This document shows, one piece after another, positions 23,399-47,397 of a DNA stretch of 64,000 nt. The position numbers and the translations under genes are program-made. The notes beneath the pieces are model-generated. The model ran no database searches, was not told the DNA's origin, and worked only from the letters and a program-made list of their open reading frames with translations. Source of the DNA: Parcubacteria group bacterium (lineage in GTDB: Bacteria > Patescibacteriota > Minisyncoccia > Moranbacterales > UBA2206). The stretch is taken from contig JBAZPT010000002.1 of the NCBI GenBank assembly GCA_041645535.1, positions 170,853 to 234,852 of the forward strand, written 5' to 3'. The stretch's first letter is position 1, and the number at the start of each line of letters is the position of its first letter.

Positions 23399-25831
23399 AT
23401 GCAAAACAAAAAAAACATTCTCTGGTTTGCGGAAACCAGAATCAAGGACATTCCCTTGGTCGGAGGGAAAAACGCGTCGCTTGGCGAGATGTATGCTAAT
23501 CTCCGGGTGAAAAAAATCAATGTTCCCAACGGTTTTTCCGTAACCGCCGAGGCTTTCCGTTATTTTGTCCATCATAATAAGCTTGAGGACAAATTCAAAA
23601 AAATATTAAAAGGCTTGAACACCGGAAGCATGCGCAATCTGTCCGAGCGCGGCTATCGCGTTCGAGAATCAATCCTGGCTTCTGAATTTCCGGACGATTT
23701 GCGAAATGATATTGTCAAAGCCTACGCCAAGCTTTCTGGGCAATATTTGCCGCACAAAAGTTTTCGGCTGACAACTGACAAAGAAGACCACACTAACCAT
23801 TTTGCCGGCGGCGTGGATGTGGCAGTGCGCTCCAGCGCCACGGCCGAGGATTTGGCTGACGCCTCATTTGCCGGACAGCAGGAATCTTACCTGAATGTTA
23901 CCGGTGAATATCAACTTTTGGAATCGGTTAAAAAATGTTTTTCTTCTCTTTTTACCGACCGCGCCATATCTTATCGCGTGGACAAAGGCTTCGGCCATTT
24001 TGATGTCGCCCTTTCCGTGGGAGTGCAAAAAATGGTCCGTTCCGACGAGGCTTGCTCCGGAGTAATGTTCACTATCGATACCGAATCCGGCTTTCAGAAC
24101 GCCATCATTATCAACGGATCCTGGGGGTTGGGCGAGAATATTGTGAAGGGAAAAGTCAATCCGGATGAATTTATCGTGCATAAGCCGACATTGAAACAGG
24201 GATTTAAATCCATTATTGGAAAGAAAATGGGGAGCAAGGAAAATAAGCTGGTTTATAGCGTCGGCGGAACTTCCTCGACGCAAAATGCCAATGTGTCGAT
24301 TGAAGACCGCAAGAAATTTTGCCTGAACGATGAGGAAGTTTTACAATTGGCCAAGTGGGGAGCGCTCATCGAGGAACATTACAAAAAAGCAATGGACATT
24401 GAATGGGCCAAGGACGGAAGATCGCATGAGTTGTATATTGTCCAGGCCCGGCCGGAAACTGTGCAGTCGCAGAAGGACAAAAATGTTTTGGAAGAATACA
24501 TTCTGCGAAGGCTCGGGACAATTCTTTGCGTCGGGGCGGCCGTGGGGAATAAAATCGGCTCCGGACAGGCCAATGTCATAAAGGACGTGGCCCAAATAGC
24601 TGATTTTAAAAAAGGAGAAGTATTGGTAACAGAAATGACAGATCCAGACTGGGAACCGATTATGAAAATAGCCAGTGCCATCGTGACCAATAGCGGAGGG
24701 CGCACTTCGCACGCGGCCATTGTCAGCCGGGAATTGGGAATACCCTGTGTTGTCGGAACGGGCAACGCCACGCGCGCGATAAAAGACAGGAAGATGATAA
24801 CCATCAGCTGCGCCGAAGGAGAAGAAGGAAGAATTTATGATGGCGCTCTGGCTTTCGACATCAAAAGAACGGATCTTAAAAACTTCAAAAAGCCCAAAAT
24901 AAAAATAATGATGAATGTCGGCAATCCTGACCAGGCTTTTGAGATGTCGATGATCCCCAACGACGGAGTGGGGCTGGCGCGCATGGAATTTATCATTACG
25001 GAATATATAAAAGCCCACCCGATGGCGCTCATCCATTTTGAAAAAGTCAAGGACAAAGAAGAAAAGAAAAAAATAGAAGAGCTGGCGCACGGCTACAAAA
25101 GCAAAGAGCAATTTTTTATCGACAAGCTGGCGGAAGGAATCGGCAGGATCGCGGCCGCCTTTTATCCCAAAGATGTGATTGTCAGAATGAGTGATTTCAA
25201 AACCAACGAGTATGCTACGCTGGTTGGCGGCAAAAATTTCGAACCGCATGAAGAAAATCCGATGATCGGTTGGCGCGGAGCGTCCCGCTATTACGATCCG
25301 GACTACATTGAAGGATTTAAGCTGGAATGCGAGGCGCTCAAAAAGGTGAGAAATGTTATGGGGCTGACAAATTTGAAAGTTATGATTCCGTTTTGCCGGA
25401 CAGTGGAAGAGGGTGAAAAGGTTTTGGCGCAAATGAAAAAATTCGGCCTCAAGCGCGGCGAGAATCAGCTGGATGTTTATGTGATGTGCGAAATCCCGTC
25501 CAATGTGATCCTGGCTCATGAATTTTCCAAAATCTTCGATGGATTTTCCATCGGCTCCAATGATCTCACGCAGTTGACACTTGGCGTCGATCGCGACAGC
25601 GCGAAAGTGGCGCATATTTATAATGAAAGGAATGAAGCGGTGAAGGAACTGATCCGCATGGTGATCGCGAAAGCCCACGCGGCCGGACGCAAAGTCGGCA
25701 TCTGCGGCCAGGCTCCGTCAGACTTTCTGGATTTCGCCGAGTTTTTAGTCAGAGAAAAAATAGATTCCATATCTTTGAATCCGGACACCGTGATTAAAAC
25801 AATGTTGGATATCGGGAAGATGGAGAAATAG
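23399..25831 (+). CDS. ppsA: phosphoenolpyruvate synthase (pyruvate, water dikinase)
   Basis: 810 aa with ATP-grasp N-domain, phosphohistidine swivel motif GGRTSHAAIVSRELGIP and a C-terminal PEP-utilising TIM barrel. Confidence 0.9.
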   Translation: MQNKKNILWFAETRIKDIPLVGGKNASLGEMYANLRVKKINVPNGFSVTAEAFRYFVHHNKLEDKFKKILKGLNTGSMRNLSERGYRVRESILASEFPDDLRNDIVKAYAKLSGQYLPHKSFRLTTDKEDHTNHFAGGVDVAVRSSATAEDLADASFAGQQESYLNVTGEYQLLESVKKCFSSLFTDRAISYRVDKGFGHFDVALSVGVQKMVRSDEACSGVMFTIDTESGFQNAIIINGSWGLGENIVKGKVNPDEFIVHKPTLKQGFKSIIGKKMGSKENKLVYSVGGTSSTQNANVSIEDRKKFCLNDEEVLQLAKWGALIEEHYKKAMDIEWAKDGRSHELYIVQARPETVQSQKDKNVLEEYILRRLGTILCVGAAVGNKIGSGQANVIKDVAQIADFKKGEVLVTEMTDPDWEPIMKIASAIVTNSGGRTSHAAIVSRELGIPCVVGTGNATRAIKDRKMITISCAEGEEGRIYDGALAFDIKRTDLKNFKKPKIKIMMNVGNPDQAFEMSMIPNDGVGLARMEFIITEYIKAHPMALIHFEKVKDKEEKKKIEELAHGYKSKEQFFIDKLAEGIGRIAAAFYPKDVIVRMSDFKTNEYATLVGGKNFEPHEENPMIGWRGASRYYDPDYIEGFKLECEALKKVRNVMGLTNLKVMIPFCRTVEEGEKVLAQMKKFGLKRGENQLDVYVMCEIPSNVILAHEFSKIFDGFSIGSNDLTQLTLGVDRDSAKVAHIYNERNEAVKELIRMVIAKAHAAGRKVGICGQAPSDFLDFAEFLVREKIDSISLNPDTVIKTMLDIGKMEK

Positions 25832-25892
25832 TTGAATAAATCCAAGATACTTGCTAGATTATAAGCGGGGCGGAAGCCTCGCTTTAAAATAT

Positions 25893-25927
25893 GGAGGCGT
25901 CGCATAGTGGCCTATTGCGCATGCTTG
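25893..25927 (+). pseudogene. orphan 5' half of tRNA-Ser(GGA), copy 1
   Basis: 35 nt identical to 26649-26683, ending at anticodon position 34. Confidence 0.85.
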
Positions 25928-25995
25928 TCCGCTCGGCTTCGCGAGCGGATCCGCTCACCCGCTCGCGCCATAGGCGCTGAGCTGGGCTGAGCGGA
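25928..25995 (+). other. GC-rich double-hairpin module (also at 26306-26373)
   Basis: Hairpin 1 is TCCGCTCG-gcttcg-CGAGCGGA (25928-25949). Hairpin 2 is TCCGCTCA...TGAGCGGA with inner GCGCC/GGCGC (25950-25995). Confidence 0.7.
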
Positions 25996-26010
25996 GAAAA
26001 TTAAAATGAT

Positions 26011-26265
26011 ATGTTTTATATTTATGTTTTGCTGAGTAAAAAAGATAATAAATTTTATATTGGATATAGCTCTGATTTGAAAAAAAGAATAGAGGATCAT
26101 TGTGGTGGCAAGGTGGAAATTACAAAACATAGATTACCATTGAAACTAGTTTATTACGAGGCTTTTATAGATAAGGGAGCAGCAAGAAGACAAGAATTAT
26201 ACTATAAAACAGGACAAGGCAGAAGAATTTTAGGCAAAAGATTGGGTTTTTTGAAGAAAAAATAA
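26011..26265 (+). CDS. GIY-YIG nuclease-domain protein (84 aa, catalytic domain only), copy 1
   Basis: MFYIYVLLSKKDNKFYIGYSSDLKKRIEDH...YYEAF...AARRQE matches GIY/YIG, Arg and Glu motifs of UPF0213-type GIY-YIG proteins. Confidence 0.8.
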   Translation: MFYIYVLLSKKDNKFYIGYSSDLKKRIEDHCGGKVEITKHRLPLKLVYYEAFIDKGAARRQELYYKTGQGRRILGKRLGFLKKK

Positions 26266-26270
26266 ATTTT

Positions 26271-26305
26271 GGAGGCGTCGCATAGTGGCCTATTGCGCAT
26301 GCTTG
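26271..26305 (+). pseudogene. orphan 5' half of tRNA-Ser(GGA), copy 2
   Basis: Identical 35-mer. Confidence 0.85.
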
Positions 26306-26388
26306 TCCGCTCGGCTTCGCGAGCGGATCCGCTCACCCGCTCGCGCCATAGGCGCTGAGCTGGGCTGAGCGGAGAAAATTAAAATGAT

Positions 26389-26643
26389 ATGTTTTATATT
26401 TATGTTTTGCTGAGTAAAAAAGATAATAAATTTTATATTGGATATAGCTCTGATTTGAAAAAAAGAATAGAGGATCATTGTGGTGGCAAGGTGGAAATTA
26501 CAAAACATAGATTACCATTGAAACTAGTTTATTACGAGGCTTTTATAGATAAGGGAGCAGCAAGAAGACAAGAATTATACTATAAAACAGGACAAGGCAG
26601 AAGAATTTTAGGCAAAAGATTGGGTTTTTTGAAGAAAAAATAA
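26389..26643 (+). CDS. GIY-YIG nuclease-domain protein, copy 2 (identical)
   Basis: Protein identical to 26011-26265. Confidence 0.8.
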   Translation: MFYIYVLLSKKDNKFYIGYSSDLKKRIEDHCGGKVEITKHRLPLKLVYYEAFIDKGAARRQELYYKTGQGRRILGKRLGFLKKK

Positions 26644-26648
26644 ATTTT

Positions 26649-26735
26649 GGAGGCGTCGCATAGTGGCCTATTGCGCATGCTTGGAAAGCATGTTTGTCTG
26701 AAAGGGCATCGTGAGTTCGACTCTCACCGCCTCCG
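26649..26735 (+). tRNA. tRNA-Ser (anticodon GGA), class II with long variable arm
   Basis: Hand-folded. Acceptor GGAGGCG/CGCCTCC, anticodon stem CATGC/GCATG with loop TTGGAAA, T arm GTGAG-TTCGACT-CTCAC, discriminator G. CCA is not encoded. Confidence 0.85.
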
Positions 26736-26745
26736 CTAACTCAAA

Positions 26746-27147
26746 ATGACAAAAAAAGTAAGCCGGGAAAAATTTGAAGAAGTAGTGGCAGATGGAATGC
26801 AAGCCATTCCGGAAAAGTTTTTGGCGAAACTGGATAATGTGGCGATTGTAGTGGAATCGCAACCAACTCCGGCGCAGATAAAAAAACTGAAAATCCGCCA
26901 AGGCTGGTCATTGTTCGGGCTTTATGAAGGCGTGCCGCAGGCCGTGCGCGGAGCGCATTATTCTTCAGTTCTGCCGGACAAGATAACCATCTTTCAAAAG
27001 CCGATTGAAGAAGCGGCGCGGAGCGAGAAGGAAATAAAAGAAATTGTAAAAAATACGGTTTGGCACGAAATCGCCCATCACTTCGGGATGGGCGAAGCGA
27101 GAGTTCGCCAAGCCGAAGCCAGGCGAAAAAATAACCCCTACCATTAA
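26746..27147 (+). CDS. zincin-like metallopeptidase family protein (DUF1025-like)
   Basis: 133 aa, LFGLYEGVP...VWHEIAHHFGM (HExxH). Confidence 0.65.
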   Translation: MTKKVSREKFEEVVADGMQAIPEKFLAKLDNVAIVVESQPTPAQIKKLKIRQGWSLFGLYEGVPQAVRGAHYSSVLPDKITIFQKPIEEAARSEKEIKEIVKNTVWHEIAHHFGMGEARVRQAEARRKNNPYH

Positions 27148-32292: not shown

Positions 32293-32576
32293 TCCGGCGT
32301 AGCTCAATGGTAGAGCAGTTGACTGTGAGATAAGCGCAGCTCTTCTTGGAAACTTGAAGATGAACTTTTCGGGATAACGGTGAAGGCTAAGTTCGCCTCG
32401 GCGAATAAGCTAATACCGTGGGAACCTCTCATGCTGAGGGGGCACCGTAGAGACTAGATACCGAAATACCTTAATCAAATTTATTTGAAAAGGTAAAGAT
32501 ATAGTCCACCCCTTTTGGAAACATTAGGATAAGTGTAATCAATTGGTTATAGGTTCGAATCCTATCGCCGGAGCCA
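32293..32576 (+). tRNA. tRNA-Asn (anticodon GUU) interrupted by a group I intron
   Basis: Exons 32293-32326 and 32536-32576 join into a perfect cloverleaf. Acceptor TCCGGCG/CGCCGGA, loop CTGT|TAA, T arm ATAGG-TTCGAAT-CCTAT, G73, CCA encoded. U1-A72 plus G73 are as in E. coli tRNA-Asn. Confidence 0.75.
32327..32535 (+). ncRNA. group I intron (209 nt, no ORF) in the anticodon loop
   Basis: The 5' exon ends in U and the intron ends in G. P1 is CUGU/GCAG (32336-32339) with U-G at the splice site. P7-like strands are AGACUA (32451-32456) and AUAGUC (32501-32506), in contexts resembling the Tetrahymena and Azoarcus cores. Confidence 0.8.
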
Positions 32577-46990: not shown

Positions 46991-47031
46991 TATTAAGTAG
47001 ATTATTTCTGCCTGGGGGCAGTTTTTTTCAT

Positions 47032-47393
47032 CCCCACACCAATTATGTTTTATTTATATATTCTAAAAAGCAAAAAAGACAAGGAGATGTACATTGGTTC
47101 TACCAATGATTTACGAAAACGGCTAGCAATGCATAATTCAGGAAAAATTTATTCTACGAAATTTAGAAAACCACTCGATTTAATATACTACGAGGCATAC
47201 AAATCAGAAGAGGACGCTCGAAGAAGAGAGCATAATTTAAAATTAAGAAGCAGGGCATTTGCCCAATTAATGAAACGCATCCAAGAAAGTTTGAAATAAA
47301 CCCACACACCAATAATTAATAAATATGGTTTAGTAGAATCAGTTGGCCATTGGTGTGAGGGTAAATTTTTCTCAAAACATAATTGGTGTGGGG
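47032..47393 (+). mobile_element. D-family inverted repeat enclosing a GIY-YIG gene (candidate autonomous element)
   Basis: Outer arms CCCCACACCAATT (47032-47044) / AATTGGTGTGGGG (47381-47393). Inner imperfect pair 47300-47313 / 47349-47362. Confidence 0.5.
47045..47299 (+). CDS. GIY-YIG nuclease-domain protein, copy 3 (divergent)
   Basis: 84 aa, MFYLYILKSKKDKEMYIGSTNDLRKRLAMH...YYEAY...ARRRE. About 40% identical by eye to the tRNA-linked copies. Confidence 0.8.
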   Translation: MFYLYILKSKKDKEMYIGSTNDLRKRLAMHNSGKIYSTKFRKPLDLIYYEAYKSEEDARRREHNLKLRSRAFAQLMKRIQESLK

Positions 47394-47397
47394 ATAA

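Follow-up and report, generated by a model that had tools for sequence, protein, structure and literature searches.

Immediately upstream of an intact tRNA-Ser(GGA) gene, a Parcubacteria contig carries what we take, with a probability of about 0.6, to be a tandem pair of small selfish cassettes, members of a family that invades stable-RNA genes of Patescibacteria. The cassette combines a double-hairpin module with a gene encoding a minimal Slx1-like (UPF0213) nuclease and is lodged in the anticodon-loop region of tRNA-Ser(GGA). The original 5' part of the tRNA gene is retained upstream as an orphan whose anticodon loop holds the module. The stretch analysed (the window, 64,000 nt) is metagenome contig sequence (JGI 3300028028 Ga0265292_1000039), and the two copies are given as assembled. 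Loci of relatives compared with the window carry L-numbers (L003, L006 and others).

Architecture of the tRNA-Ser(GGA) locus

All features described here are on the forward strand. The native intergenic region and leader 5' of the ancestral tRNA-Ser gene (25832..25892) contain a hairpin located after the PPDK-like gene; the region is nearly identical to its counterpart in L192 and homologous in L003. In L192 it leads directly into an uninterrupted tRNA-Ser(GGA). In the window, the place of the tRNA 5' end relative to this conserved flank is taken by a first orphan copy of tRNA-Ser positions 1-35 (25893..25927), comprising the acceptor 5' strand, the D arm, the 5' stem of the anticodon arm and the loop up to G34, and matching 26649-26683 at 35/35 positions. 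The first double-hairpin module follows (25928..25995; hairpin 1 at 25928-25949, hairpin 2 at 25950-25995 with a single-nucleotide 3' bulge), supported by pattern search, folding, covariation and a covariance-model match of 65.8 bits. Spliced alignment to the intact tRNA identified the next four nucleotides, GAAA (25996..25999), as a remnant of anticodon-loop positions 36-39. The GIY-YIG nuclease ORF (26011..26265; 84 aa, Slx1-like/UPF0213 type, 29% G+C) is separated by a 5-nt spacer after its stop codon (ATTTT, 26266..26270) from the next tRNA-derived 5' end.

The second unit has the same order: an exact repeat of the orphan, again tRNA-Ser positions 1-35 (26271..26305), a module found by pattern search and covariance model (26306..26373; hairpins at 26306-26327 and 26328-26373), GAAA (26374..26377) and an ORF identical to the first (26389..26643). 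The array ends at the functional tRNA-Ser(GGA) gene (26649..26736), called by ARAGORN with its anticodon at index 35 and scoring 52.8 bits against the Rfam tRNA model; CCA is not encoded.

Most of this anatomy had been described in a first-pass annotation made from the sequence alone, and it was borne out: an exact 378-nt tandem repeat (25893-26270 equals 26271-26648), a third copy of the 35-mer forming the 5' part of the intact tRNA, and the completeness of that tRNA. The shared hairpin ends, searched as the pattern TCCGCYC...GRGCGGA, occur four times and are confined to the cassettes, with 0.02 occurrences expected by chance, and both of the 84-aa proteins, noted as identical, match the Pfam GIY-YIG family. 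The breakpoint proposed between anticodon positions 34 and 35 stands as the point of module insertion but not as the end of the tRNA-derived sequence, which resumes with GAAA after the module. Anticodon-loop homology likewise resumes in relatives, for 6-8 nt compared with 4 in the window (GAAAGC in L006, GAGAGCGT in L010, AAAACTG in L043). Alignment shows the module cleanly inserted into the orphan's anticodon loop. The proposal that the tRNA stays intact without splicing also holds: tRNA-Ser(GGA) is contiguous, and it owes its survival to a second copy of its 5' part on the downstream side of the cassette.

Integration with duplication of tRNA segments is classically seen at tRNA genes, and this favours reading the 35-nt repeats as attL and attR of an integrase-mobilised islet. 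Alternatively, the cassette could be what is left of a group I intron and the homing endonuclease gene that it carried, and the same genome does carry a group I intron in the anticodon loop of a tRNA-Thr (32325-32533). We consider both very improbable. The repeats of an islet are present, but no recombinase ORF lies in the 343-bp core or beside the cassette, where the only ORF is that of the GIY-YIG protein. No group I intron was found in 25800-26800 at Rfam gathering or permissive thresholds; the permissive scan returned the tRNA and noise, with no ribozyme core. The tRNA is uninterrupted, and the association with a GIY-YIG ORF recurs in dozens of genomes.

A minimal nuclease of the Slx1-like branch

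The ORF product matches Pfam GIY-YIG (PF01541) with E 4.4e-15 and 56.2 bits (cutoff 22.6), and the catalytic residues Y5, Y16, G18, R26, H30 and E50 are invariant among 38 homologs; by sequence, we assign it to the GIY-YIG nuclease superfamily. Its matches among PDB sequences are the UPF0213 proteins 1ZG2 (E 2.8e-12) and 1YWL (E 9e-9). The predicted structure (pLDDT 96) gave 1ZG2 (BH0048), At-HIGLE (7WME) and Slx1-Slx4 as top Foldseek matches, and I-TevI ranked lower (E 0.055). The Slx1-like/UPF0213 branch was defined by a minimal stand-alone domain without an auxiliary domain or the C-terminal Asn helix of the UvrC/I-TevI lineage (PMC1564403). Sequence and fold thus place the protein in this branch of structure-specific nucleases.

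The earlier remark that the protein is a catalytic domain with no DNA-binding domain was correct, as the 84 aa form a single domain with no linker-joined C-terminal DNA-binding domain. The catalytic-plus-DNA-binding architecture of the I-TevI/Seg-type homing endonucleases, including SegB, is absent. TIGR01453, the model for group I intron endonucleases, scored 24.4 bits against a cutoff of 56.05 and matched residues 4-34 alone. The comparison with SegB made at first pass therefore remains useful as a functional analogy but not as a statement of lineage, since the score is below the cutoff and the fold is nearer to Slx1, HIGLE and BH0048 than to I-TevI.

The cassette is absent from some close relatives

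The locus is syntenic across relatives, with tRNA-Ser between PPDK and a Zincin gene, and its state differs among them: L189 is empty, L192 has no 5' cassette, L003 has one copy and the window has two. The empty site suggested as a check on the proposed invasion of the tRNA-Ser(GGA) anticodon loop was found in L189, which lacks both cassette and orphan, and the nearly identical upstream region of L192 runs into an uninterrupted tRNA; both observations support the invasion. The window and L003 share 98% identity over the 343-nt core, compared with 85.5% for PPDK, 85.8% for DnaG and 71-86% for the tRNA halves. This excess of core over flank identity (98% against ~85%) shows that the core moves horizontally. 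In two strains of one MAG, PPDK is 95% identical, but identity reaches 99.3% over the combined intergenic region, orphan, core and tRNA, a block that looks like the product of co-conversion. With a polymorphic site and an element more similar than its flanks, the cassette qualifies on comparative grounds as a homing element in the functional sense.

Tandem array, circle or assembly loop

The 35-40-nt direct repeats may have allowed unequal recombination, possibly stimulated by the nuclease, to generate the second copy. Amplification through the direct repeats, as first suggested, is plausible, and the arrangement recurs in L006. In this independent MAG contig the opening 127-nt stretch recurs 348 nt downstream, which is the same type of unit junction. 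We put it well below even odds that the chromosome has one cassette and that the second copy arose either when the assembler walked round a loop in its graph or from reads of an excised circle of 378 bp. The source is a metagenome contig, the syntenic relative L003 has a single copy, the L001 and L006 contigs break at the repeat, and the terminal overlap of L006 is exactly 127 nt, a typical largest k-mer size; all of these would fit such an artefact or circle. Against it, the same junction is independently present in L006. Moreover, a junction-bearing molecule, array or circle, must exist, because the unit junction assembles only from reads that contain the ORF end, the 5' half and the module. 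The single-copy architecture and its interpretation hold at any copy number.

Origin of the duplicated 5' half

The annotation had also inferred that the cassette carries a replacement 5' half. This was not borne out. The core is nearly the same in the window and L003, but the orphan and functional 5' halves are each 83-86% identical between them and each resemble the tRNA of their own genome, and the high identity ends within 5 nt of both core ends. A replacement half is not supported because the repeats look lineage-specific. The tRNA copies are identical in the window; those of L003 differ at 3 positions, both being like the local lineage. A search for more near-identical cores on differing tRNA backgrounds yielded L027/L035 and L038/L053 alone, and these were uninformative. 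Across relatives, the tRNA-Ser alleles are mosaic and 70-83% identical, and they could include imported segments.

The resident look of both repeats in the window and L003 argues against simple double-strand-break homing, which predicts a donor-derived functional 5' half travelling with the core. One alternative is structure-guided, transposition-like integration in place of homology-templated homing: the nuclease would cut folded tRNA-gene DNA twice, in a loop and at the acceptor-stem base, the core would be joined, and fill-in on both sides would leave a resident-derived 35-nt repeat as a long target duplication. Each repeat resembles the tRNA of its own genome, genomes that are 85% identical share a 98%-identical core, and the high identity gives out within 5 nt of the core ends, all as this scheme expects. 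The repeat starts at tRNA +1 or -1 (window, L010, L043, L026), nearly all junctions lie in loops of the cloverleaf, modules are found in either orientation, and the protein belongs to a branched-DNA nuclease lineage and has no DNA-binding domain. Even so, we regard the scheme as unlikely. GIY-YIG enzymes are hydrolytic with no known strand-transfer chemistry. The duplications vary in extent (1-10, 1-17, 1-24, 1-41 and full-length), as does the duplicated part of the leader (6 nt in L008, ~27 nt in L035), which fits ragged duplication and trimming better than a fixed stagger, and close strains show the flank co-conversion typical of recombinational homing.

A conserved double-hairpin module

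The module (68 nt, GC-rich, two hairpins) is 68/68 identical between the window and L003. Its stems covary: 95.7-97.9% of cells are paired, 7-8 pairs have changed on both sides, and 0/500 shuffles matched the score, so the conservation and covariation suggested as a check were both found. The pairs include 24 G-U compared with 4 A-C mismatches, which favours a fold of the sense strand. Across loci, 30/31 module junctions in tRNA sequence are in loops; by region, the junctions map to the D-loop (12), the anticodon loop (16) and the T-loop (3). Similar modules are thus found in the D-, anticodon- and T-loops of other tRNA fragments, with the ORF nearby or absent. A role for the module had been offered as speculation; it is conserved, covarying and more than an appendage of the ORF, given its presence in other tRNA-fragment loops with or without one. 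Solo modules without an ORF suggest that the module may move or persist independently. The orientation is reversed in ~6/35 cases, which weakens a purely RNA-level role.

The sense-strand-folded module may be a conserved cis element, acting as a structure recognised by the nuclease, as a 5' structure of the mRNA that overlaps a GGAG Shine-Dalgarno-like motif, or as both. The distance from GGAG to the start codon is variable (7 to ~30 nt). Rfam 15 returned no family for the 68-nt module at the gathering threshold over the whole window or at permissive settings over 25800-26800, where the best match (RAGATH-10, 15.9 bits, E 5.6) is noise. A hammerhead or other small ribozyme was dropped as a candidate, as the hairpins abut without core nucleotides and Rfam returned nothing. 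We also dropped mimicry of the tRNA-Ser 3' end by the TCCGCYC strand, since the motif also accompanies tRNA-Tyr and tRNA-Glu cassettes. About 50 pattern matches in GC-rich metagenome contigs (0.6-0.74 G+C) have no tRNA or GIY-YIG gene and are probably unrelated.

A family across Patescibacteria

Homologs of the nuclease very often adjoin tRNA fragments in relatives, which answers the suggestion that the same cassette be sought beside other tRNA genes. A same-strand tRNA lies within 200 nt downstream of the stop codon at 41/77 homolog loci (median gap 5 nt), a frequency that carries the ascertainment bias of loci gathered through the ORF (a 20-sequence alignment) or the module pattern. The tRNAs at these 41 loci are mostly seryl (Ser-GGA 17, Ser-TGA 9, Ser-CGA 6, Ser-GCT 3) and also include Cys, Tyr, Glu, Val and Trp; every one of the 9 loci with at least 60% identity is at Ser-GGA. 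Many homolog loci have an upstream orphan 5' fragment of the same tRNA. The 5' halves of these orphans are perfect in L006, L009, L010, L026 and L043, and across loci they have decayed to differing degrees. ORF clades track tRNA isoacceptors, and homologous ORFs also lie inside 16S and 23S rRNA genes. Judged from these homologs, the cassette is one member of a widespread Patescibacteria family. No relative was found in IMG/VR and no blastn match in phage records, giving no sign of a viral origin.

The absence of viral copies could also indicate a domesticated, vertically inherited host feature that has ceased to be mobile, either a nuclease for tRNA-gene maintenance or a regulatory or decoy RNA formed by orphan and hairpins. 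Strong purifying selection (invariant catalytic residues; 6/6 ORF differences between the window and L003 synonymous), the match of ORF clades to isoacceptors and the tight packing of ORF and tRNA would agree with this. We nevertheless find it improbable. Presence varies at one locus among close relatives, the core is far more similar than its flanks, and the G+C of the ORF is well below that of the window (42%). Related ORFs interrupt rRNA genes, and the uneven decay of the orphans is expected of non-functional remnants.

Comparison with known systems

A full-text search of the literature outside subscription journals found no description of this arrangement; an earlier one may exist elsewhere. 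SegB, a free-standing GIY-YIG homing endonuclease of phage T4/T6 tRNA gene clusters, drives segmental amplification (PMC2330249; PMC13096335), and T6 escape mutants carry a 718-bp repeat unit formed through microhomology of the tRNA 5' end with the segB 3' end (PMC13096335). The likeness lies in a GIY-YIG gene directly beside tRNA genes, in tandem units of nuclease gene plus tRNA sequence, and in horizontal spread. By analogy, SegB amplification may serve as a precedent for nuclease-driven tandem amplification of a tRNA and GIY-YIG unit. However, SegB comes from phage, belongs to the I-TevI/Seg lineage and has a DNA-binding region, whereas an 84-aa Slx1-like/UPF0213 domain is encoded here on bacterial chromosomes. 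The T6 unit contains a full-length tRNA, whereas here the cassette sits inside a tRNA gene whose 5' half is left as an orphan, and conserved hairpins form part of the arrangement.

Endonuclease ORFs of fungal mitochondria make "gene hybrids" in Allomyces atp6 and Glomus atp6, atp9, cox2 and nad3 (PMC3630166). There too, an ORF occupies an essential gene, a terminal part is duplicated, the gene stays functional and the displaced native part adjoins as a pseudo-copy. The fungal cases differ in that they concern protein genes, C-terminal duplication and mostly LAGLIDADG enzymes, with an inserted part that is foreign (64-81% identity to the native one). In the cassette the target is a tRNA, the duplication is 5', the copies are identical or lineage-matched, and a hairpin module is included.

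BH0048 (1ZG2), EF2693 (1YWL) and COG2827-type proteins share the sequence and fold family and the minimal domain. The 2006 survey of the Slx1-like/UPF0213 family predicted only a DNA-repair role and found mostly vertical descent (PMC1564403); by comparison, a large Patescibacteria clade here has the behaviour of a mobile element whose sites are tRNA and rRNA genes. Bacterial tRNA group I introns with homing endonuclease genes share the anticodon-loop target, but the cassette has neither ribozyme nor splicing, and the tRNA is restored by duplication at the DNA level. The intron-containing tRNA-Thr gene of the window is tRNA-Thr(UGU).

GC-rich hairpin repeats that insert alone include mitochondrial GC clusters, double-hairpin elements and bacterial REP/MITE-type sequences. 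Likened by description, they share short paired hairpins, an AT-rich background, many sites and sometimes the lack of an ORF. The modules described here differ in lying almost only in tRNA-derived loops and in their link to one nuclease family.

Discussion

In the selfish-cassette reading that we prefer, the nuclease would break DNA at structural landmarks of tRNA genes, namely loops and gene ends, probably by recognising folded or branched DNA and not a long sequence, like Slx1-type enzymes. The cassette would then be copied in by recombinational repair from an occupied allele, and the products to persist would be those in which one complete tRNA copy is kept or restored. Because the ORF lacks an evident promoter and stops just 5 nt short of the tRNA, the two most likely share a transcript started at the tRNA promoter, from which RNase P frees the tRNA. 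A simple scan of the cassette for promoters and terminators detected neither on the sense strand. A difficulty for the selfish-cassette reading is self-immunity, as the presumed target is still there in the intact tRNA copy.

A bolder and rather doubtful idea is that the module and its Slx1-like nuclease form a new class of mobile element that finds its targets by DNA shape and not by sequence. What the nuclease recognises would be tRNA (and rRNA) genes folded out of the duplex, which it would cut in the loops of the cloverleaf and at the acceptor-stem base, and the module would serve the element as a structured end. Such targeting would account for the modules in D-, anticodon- and T-loops, the duplications bounded by tRNA ends and the target specificity of a protein with no DNA-binding domain.

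The motif is conserved, covarying, structured and new to Rfam. In practical terms, cassettes of this kind break assemblies at tRNA genes, and the tRNA pseudo-fragments can confuse annotation. Their activity may explain why tRNA-Ser alleles at this locus are more diverged and mosaic than neighbouring protein genes. The locus shows a DNA-level alternative to splicing, in which an essential tRNA gene tolerates a selfish insert through partial duplication and orphan halves are left behind. Recognition of structure is a testable explanation of how a nuclease that lacks a DNA-binding domain could find its target. These findings link Slx1-like/UPF0213 nucleases to a concrete genomic behaviour, the colonisation of tRNA and rRNA genes in ultrasmall Patescibacteria, and a shape-guided class of elements, if true, would provide the first function for the large UPF0213 family.

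Tandem cassettes beside an intact tRNA-Ser(GGA)

The window is part of metagenome contig JGI 3300028028 Ga0265292_1000039. Two identical 378-nt units lie in tandem on the + strand (25893-26270 and 26271-26648). A third copy of the first 35 nt of the unit (26649-26683, +) is a sequence repeat that opens the intact tRNA-Ser(GGA) (26649-26736, +), which both ARAGORN and Rfam detect. In each unit, the 35-mer is followed by a pair of abutting GC-rich hairpins (TCCGCTCG..CGAGCGGA first, TCCGCTCA...TGAGCGGA second), and an 84-codon ORF with a Pfam GIY-YIG match (E 4.4e-15) closes the unit. A pattern search located this hairpin pattern four times in the 64-kb window, all in the cassettes, against a chance expectation of 0.02. 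The G+C content of the ORF is 29%, compared with 42% for the window. Repeat, tRNA, hairpins and ORF were all recovered as the first-pass annotation had read them.

An out-of-frame ATG 4 nt ahead of the ORF start, and 9 nt past the GGAG in the hairpin 3' strand, opens a 9-codon frame that overlaps the start (26007-26036). This frame is probably incidental, as the ATG is missing (ATAATATG) in L003, a syntenic locus from another genome. The Zincin_1 gene begins 10 nt past the tRNA in the window (26737-26745 lie between). A small membrane-protein ORF found between these genes in L003 (3043-3263) and in the syntenic locus L189 (2316-2500) is missing there.

The cassette family is associated with tRNA genes

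A large protein collection contained 112 close relatives of the cassette protein, mostly of 80-90 aa and mostly from Patescibacteria. We recovered 80 loci (L-numbered here), one genome per species; counts use 77, leaving out the first three, which duplicate contigs already in the analysis. In 41 of the 77 loci, a same-strand tRNA gene starts no more than 200 nt after the stop codon, with a median gap of 5 nt. Ser-GGA is the commonest of these tRNAs (17), ahead of Ser-TGA (9), Ser-CGA (6) and Ser-GCT (3); Cys occurs twice, and Tyr, Glu, Val and Trp once each. Ser-GGA is the site of all nine loci with at least 60% identity to the window protein.

Many loci repeat the opening 35-37 nt of the downstream tRNA ahead of the ORF. 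This orphan repeat is perfect in L006, L009, L010, L026 and L043 and decayed elsewhere. The space between orphan and ORF holds one hairpin or two, built like those of the window and starting with TC or CC and ending with GA or GG; the junction sequence is GGA|TCC, with an A-rich stretch after it. The tandem unit junction recurs in L006, where the first 127 nt repeat 348 nt downstream. The first-pass annotation had made its reading depend on homologs adjoining tRNA fragments and on a conserved, covarying hairpin module. It holds on both points, because homologs adjoin tRNAs and orphans with same-design hairpins, and the module recurs across loci and covaries. A search of viral contigs and phage records found no copy of the cassette.

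The module splits the anticodon loop

We aligned the intact tRNA to the region upstream of the ORF, permitting one long gap. The tRNA homology runs past position 35 and picks up directly after the 68-nt module, so that, as aligned, the orphan is tRNA positions 1 to ~40 with the anticodon loop cleanly split by the hairpin module. The resumed stretch is 4 nt in the window (GAAA, 25996-25999) and 6-8 lineage-specific nt in relatives (GAAAGC in L006, GAGAGCGT in L010, AAAACTG in L043, AAAACC in L020 and L040), and the ORF starts 1-30 nt beyond it. In Ser-GGA the module follows G34, and in Ser-TGA and Ser-CGA it follows G35; the sequence just before it is always ..YTNG. The breakpoint between anticodon positions 34 and 35, proposed from the sequence, is therefore the insertion point of the module but not the end of the tRNA-derived sequence.

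The site is polymorphic and the core moves horizontally

The gene order PPDK-like, tRNA-Ser(GGA), Zincin_1 is common to the window and three contigs (L003, L189 and L192); in L003 and L189, a histidine kinase gene and dnaG come after Zincin_1. L003 has one cassette at the syntenic site. The tRNA of L189 has neither cassette nor orphan. In L192, an upstream intergenic region nearly identical to that of the window leads directly into an uninterrupted tRNA, with a different small GIY-YIG gene on its 3' side. The gapped alignment and these uninterrupted tRNAs bear out the earlier proposal that the cassette invaded the anticodon-loop region.

The flanking genes of the window and L003 share 81-86% identity, both tRNA-derived 5' halves 83-86% and the tRNA 3' half 71%. 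The 343-nt core (the unit without its tRNA repeat) is 98% identical, with 68/68 identical positions in the module and all six ORF differences synonymous, and the identity boundary lies at most 5 nt from each core end. These comparisons identify the tRNA-Ser(GGA) cassette as an insertion at a polymorphic site, with the tRNA restored by duplication and the core moving horizontally.

Under classical homing, the functional 5' half should come from the donor and move together with the core. No such movement of a donor half is seen between the window and L003, and the proposal that the cassette carries a replacement 5' half is not upheld. Two routes fit the data: precise core replacement in sites already occupied, and structure-guided insertion that duplicates resident sequence.

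L001 and L003, two strains of one MAG, have PPDK genes 95% identical and only 4 differences in ~590 nt across the intergenic region, orphan, core and tRNA; three of the four are within the first ten nt of the functional tRNA. Among the four syntenic genomes (window 26649-26736, L003, L189 and L192), tRNA-Ser(GGA) is 70-83% identical, less than the adjacent PPDK 3' ends at 82-90%. The tRNA arms are mosaic: L189, for example, shares its T arm with the window and its anticodon and variable arms with L003. The acceptor stem differs in all four genomes, with compensating changes in each.

The module is a conserved structure that prefers tRNA loops

With each module deleted in silico, alignment of the healed flanks to the intact tRNA nearby gave positions for 31 junctions. 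The D-loop region holds 12 of them, the anticodon loop 16 and the T-loop 3. The count in loops is 30 of 31, because one D-loop-region junction (L008, index 10) borders the D stem. Some modules lie in 5' orphans, others in 3' orphans located past the intact tRNA (L006, L029, L018, L079, L171 and L186; 3'-half orphans in L023 and L033) or in full-length second tRNA copies (L018, L022 and L175), sometimes with no ORF nearby. Such solo modules may be independently mobile or may be remnants of cassettes that lost their ORF. Every tRNA sequence interrupted by a module has an intact copy beside it, which is a complete gene or was restored through partial duplication. The duplicated extents are positions 1-10, 1-17, 1-24, 1-41, about 50-76, 36-76 or the entire gene, with up to 27 nt of leader.

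The nearly full-length second copies (Arg-TCT or Ser-GCT; L175 ~2278-2560, L022 1762-2108, L018 1128-1440) have the double-hairpin module in the D-loop and sometimes a further hairpin in the anticodon or T loop. The remainder of the L022 copy is identical to the intact gene.

When 15 real modules are aligned by sequence with MAFFT, 95.7% of cells are paired and 8 of 19 pairs have changes on both sides; none of 500 shuffles matches the observed score, and pairing is lost when partner columns are slid. A composite that pools the six basal pairs of each hairpin over 16 distinct sequence types is 97.9% paired, with double changes in 7 of 12 pairs. The covariance model built from the alignment recovers ~35 distinct modules across the window and 81 loci, with E-values that are only rough; some module boundaries were placed by eye. 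A one-nt bulge (C or A) is kept in the long hairpin, 8 nt from its 3' end. The three tests (alignment, composite and covariance model) agree in supporting a conserved structure, and an Rfam search with the module returned no family match. The excess of G-U pairs (24) over A-C mismatches (4) favours selection on the sense strand in single-stranded RNA or DNA. About six modules score higher on the opposite strand, so both orientations exist.

A UPF0213/Slx1-like nuclease

A 38-homolog profile matched only two solved structures, both UPF0213: BH0048 (1ZG2, E 2.8e-12) and EF2693 (1YWL). The AlphaFold model of the cassette protein (pLDDT 96) has its best fold matches in BH0048, the plant junction-resolving nuclease At-HIGLE and several Slx1-Slx4 structures, with I-TevI and UvrC lower. 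Against the NCBI group I intron endonuclease model, the protein scores below the cutoff. In a superfamily survey (PMC1564403), the GIY-YIG domain takes its minimal stand-alone form in prokaryotic Slx1-like proteins, which are paralogous to the UvrC/homing-endonuclease lineage and for which a repair role is only predicted. Because the protein matches UPF0213/Slx1 rather than homing-endonuclease models, the suggested likeness to SegB applies to behaviour and not to family membership.

Related ORFs at other sites

ORF relatives also lie inside 16S rRNA genes (L048 1395-3208, L060 1398-2727) and 23S rRNA genes (L056 765-3240; L065 1-2798, a Planctomycetota MAG), all on the rRNA strand, and others between genes within inverted repeats. 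The rRNA-gene insert of L048 is closed by a 10-bp stem (CTCACTCTTT / AAAGAGTGAG), and the intron search made no group I call there. A second 84-aa GIY-YIG ORF in the window (47045-47299, within 47031-47395), ~53% identical to the cassette protein, is intergenic with no adjoining tRNA, and is enclosed by nested inverted repeats (ATCCCCACACCAATT ... AATTGGTGTGGGGAT). The same ORF-inside-long-range-stem design occurs in L063, L059 and L019.

The different small GIY-YIG clade on the 3' side of tRNA-Ser(GGA) (L192 534-960; L008 1747-2180) lies between repeats of the tRNA 3' end (CCCTCCCTCTCCGCCA again after the ORF in L008, GGCGTGACAAAGTCCGCC twice in L192), so related elements use the same tRNA gene from both ends. 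Planctomycetota loci L065, L068, L070 and L071 share a conserved motif ~40 nt upstream of the ORF, CCCCGCCCCTCC(A/G)TGGGT(T/C)TCTC(C/T)GGCG(C/T)AAG, and distant homologs (L074-L078, L082 and L083) have a GTCATTGCGAG...GTGGCAATCTC hairpin ahead of it. A dedicated upstream hairpin with a small GIY-YIG gene may be a general theme beyond Patescibacteria.

Proposed mechanism and relation to known systems

We propose that the nuclease would break tRNA-gene DNA at structural landmarks and that the cassette would be copied in by repair from an occupied allele, which fits the co-conversion between close strains. Survivors would be only those products that keep an intact tRNA, which still holds the presumed target, and the redundant fragment would decay afterwards. 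Unequal recombination between direct repeats would add units. This unit gain has a parallel in phage T6, where SegB-dependent amplification of a 718-bp tRNA-plus-segB unit was demonstrated experimentally (PMC13096335).

The ORF is probably co-transcribed from the tRNA promoter, with RNase P releasing the tRNA, given the 5-nt gap, the ORFs that overlap the tRNA start (L008 and L017) and a scan of the cassette that found no sense-strand promoter or terminator. GGAG lies in the 3' strand of the last hairpin, 7-30 nt ahead of the start codon, making occlusion of the ribosome-binding site by this hairpin possible.

The four nearest systems are SegB with its tRNA-cluster amplification, from which the cassette nuclease differs in lineage; fungal mitochondrial endonuclease ORFs, which bring along a second copy of the end of the gene they enter (PMC3630166), where the cassette has a tRNA 5' duplication; group I introns in tRNA anticodon loops; and the UPF0213 family itself. 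One such intron is in the window, where a 209-nt group I intron without an ORF (32325-32533; Rfam Intron_gpI, 56.7 bits) splits tRNA-Thr(UGU) after U33 (32293-32576); ARAGORN finds this gene only once the intron is removed in silico. A full-text literature search found no description of the cassette arrangement. We consider it unlikely to represent a new class of structure-targeting mobile element and file it as a free-standing endonuclease cassette with target-gene duplication. What it combines is another nuclease lineage, a tRNA restored by 5' duplication and a dedicated loop-preferring hairpin module.
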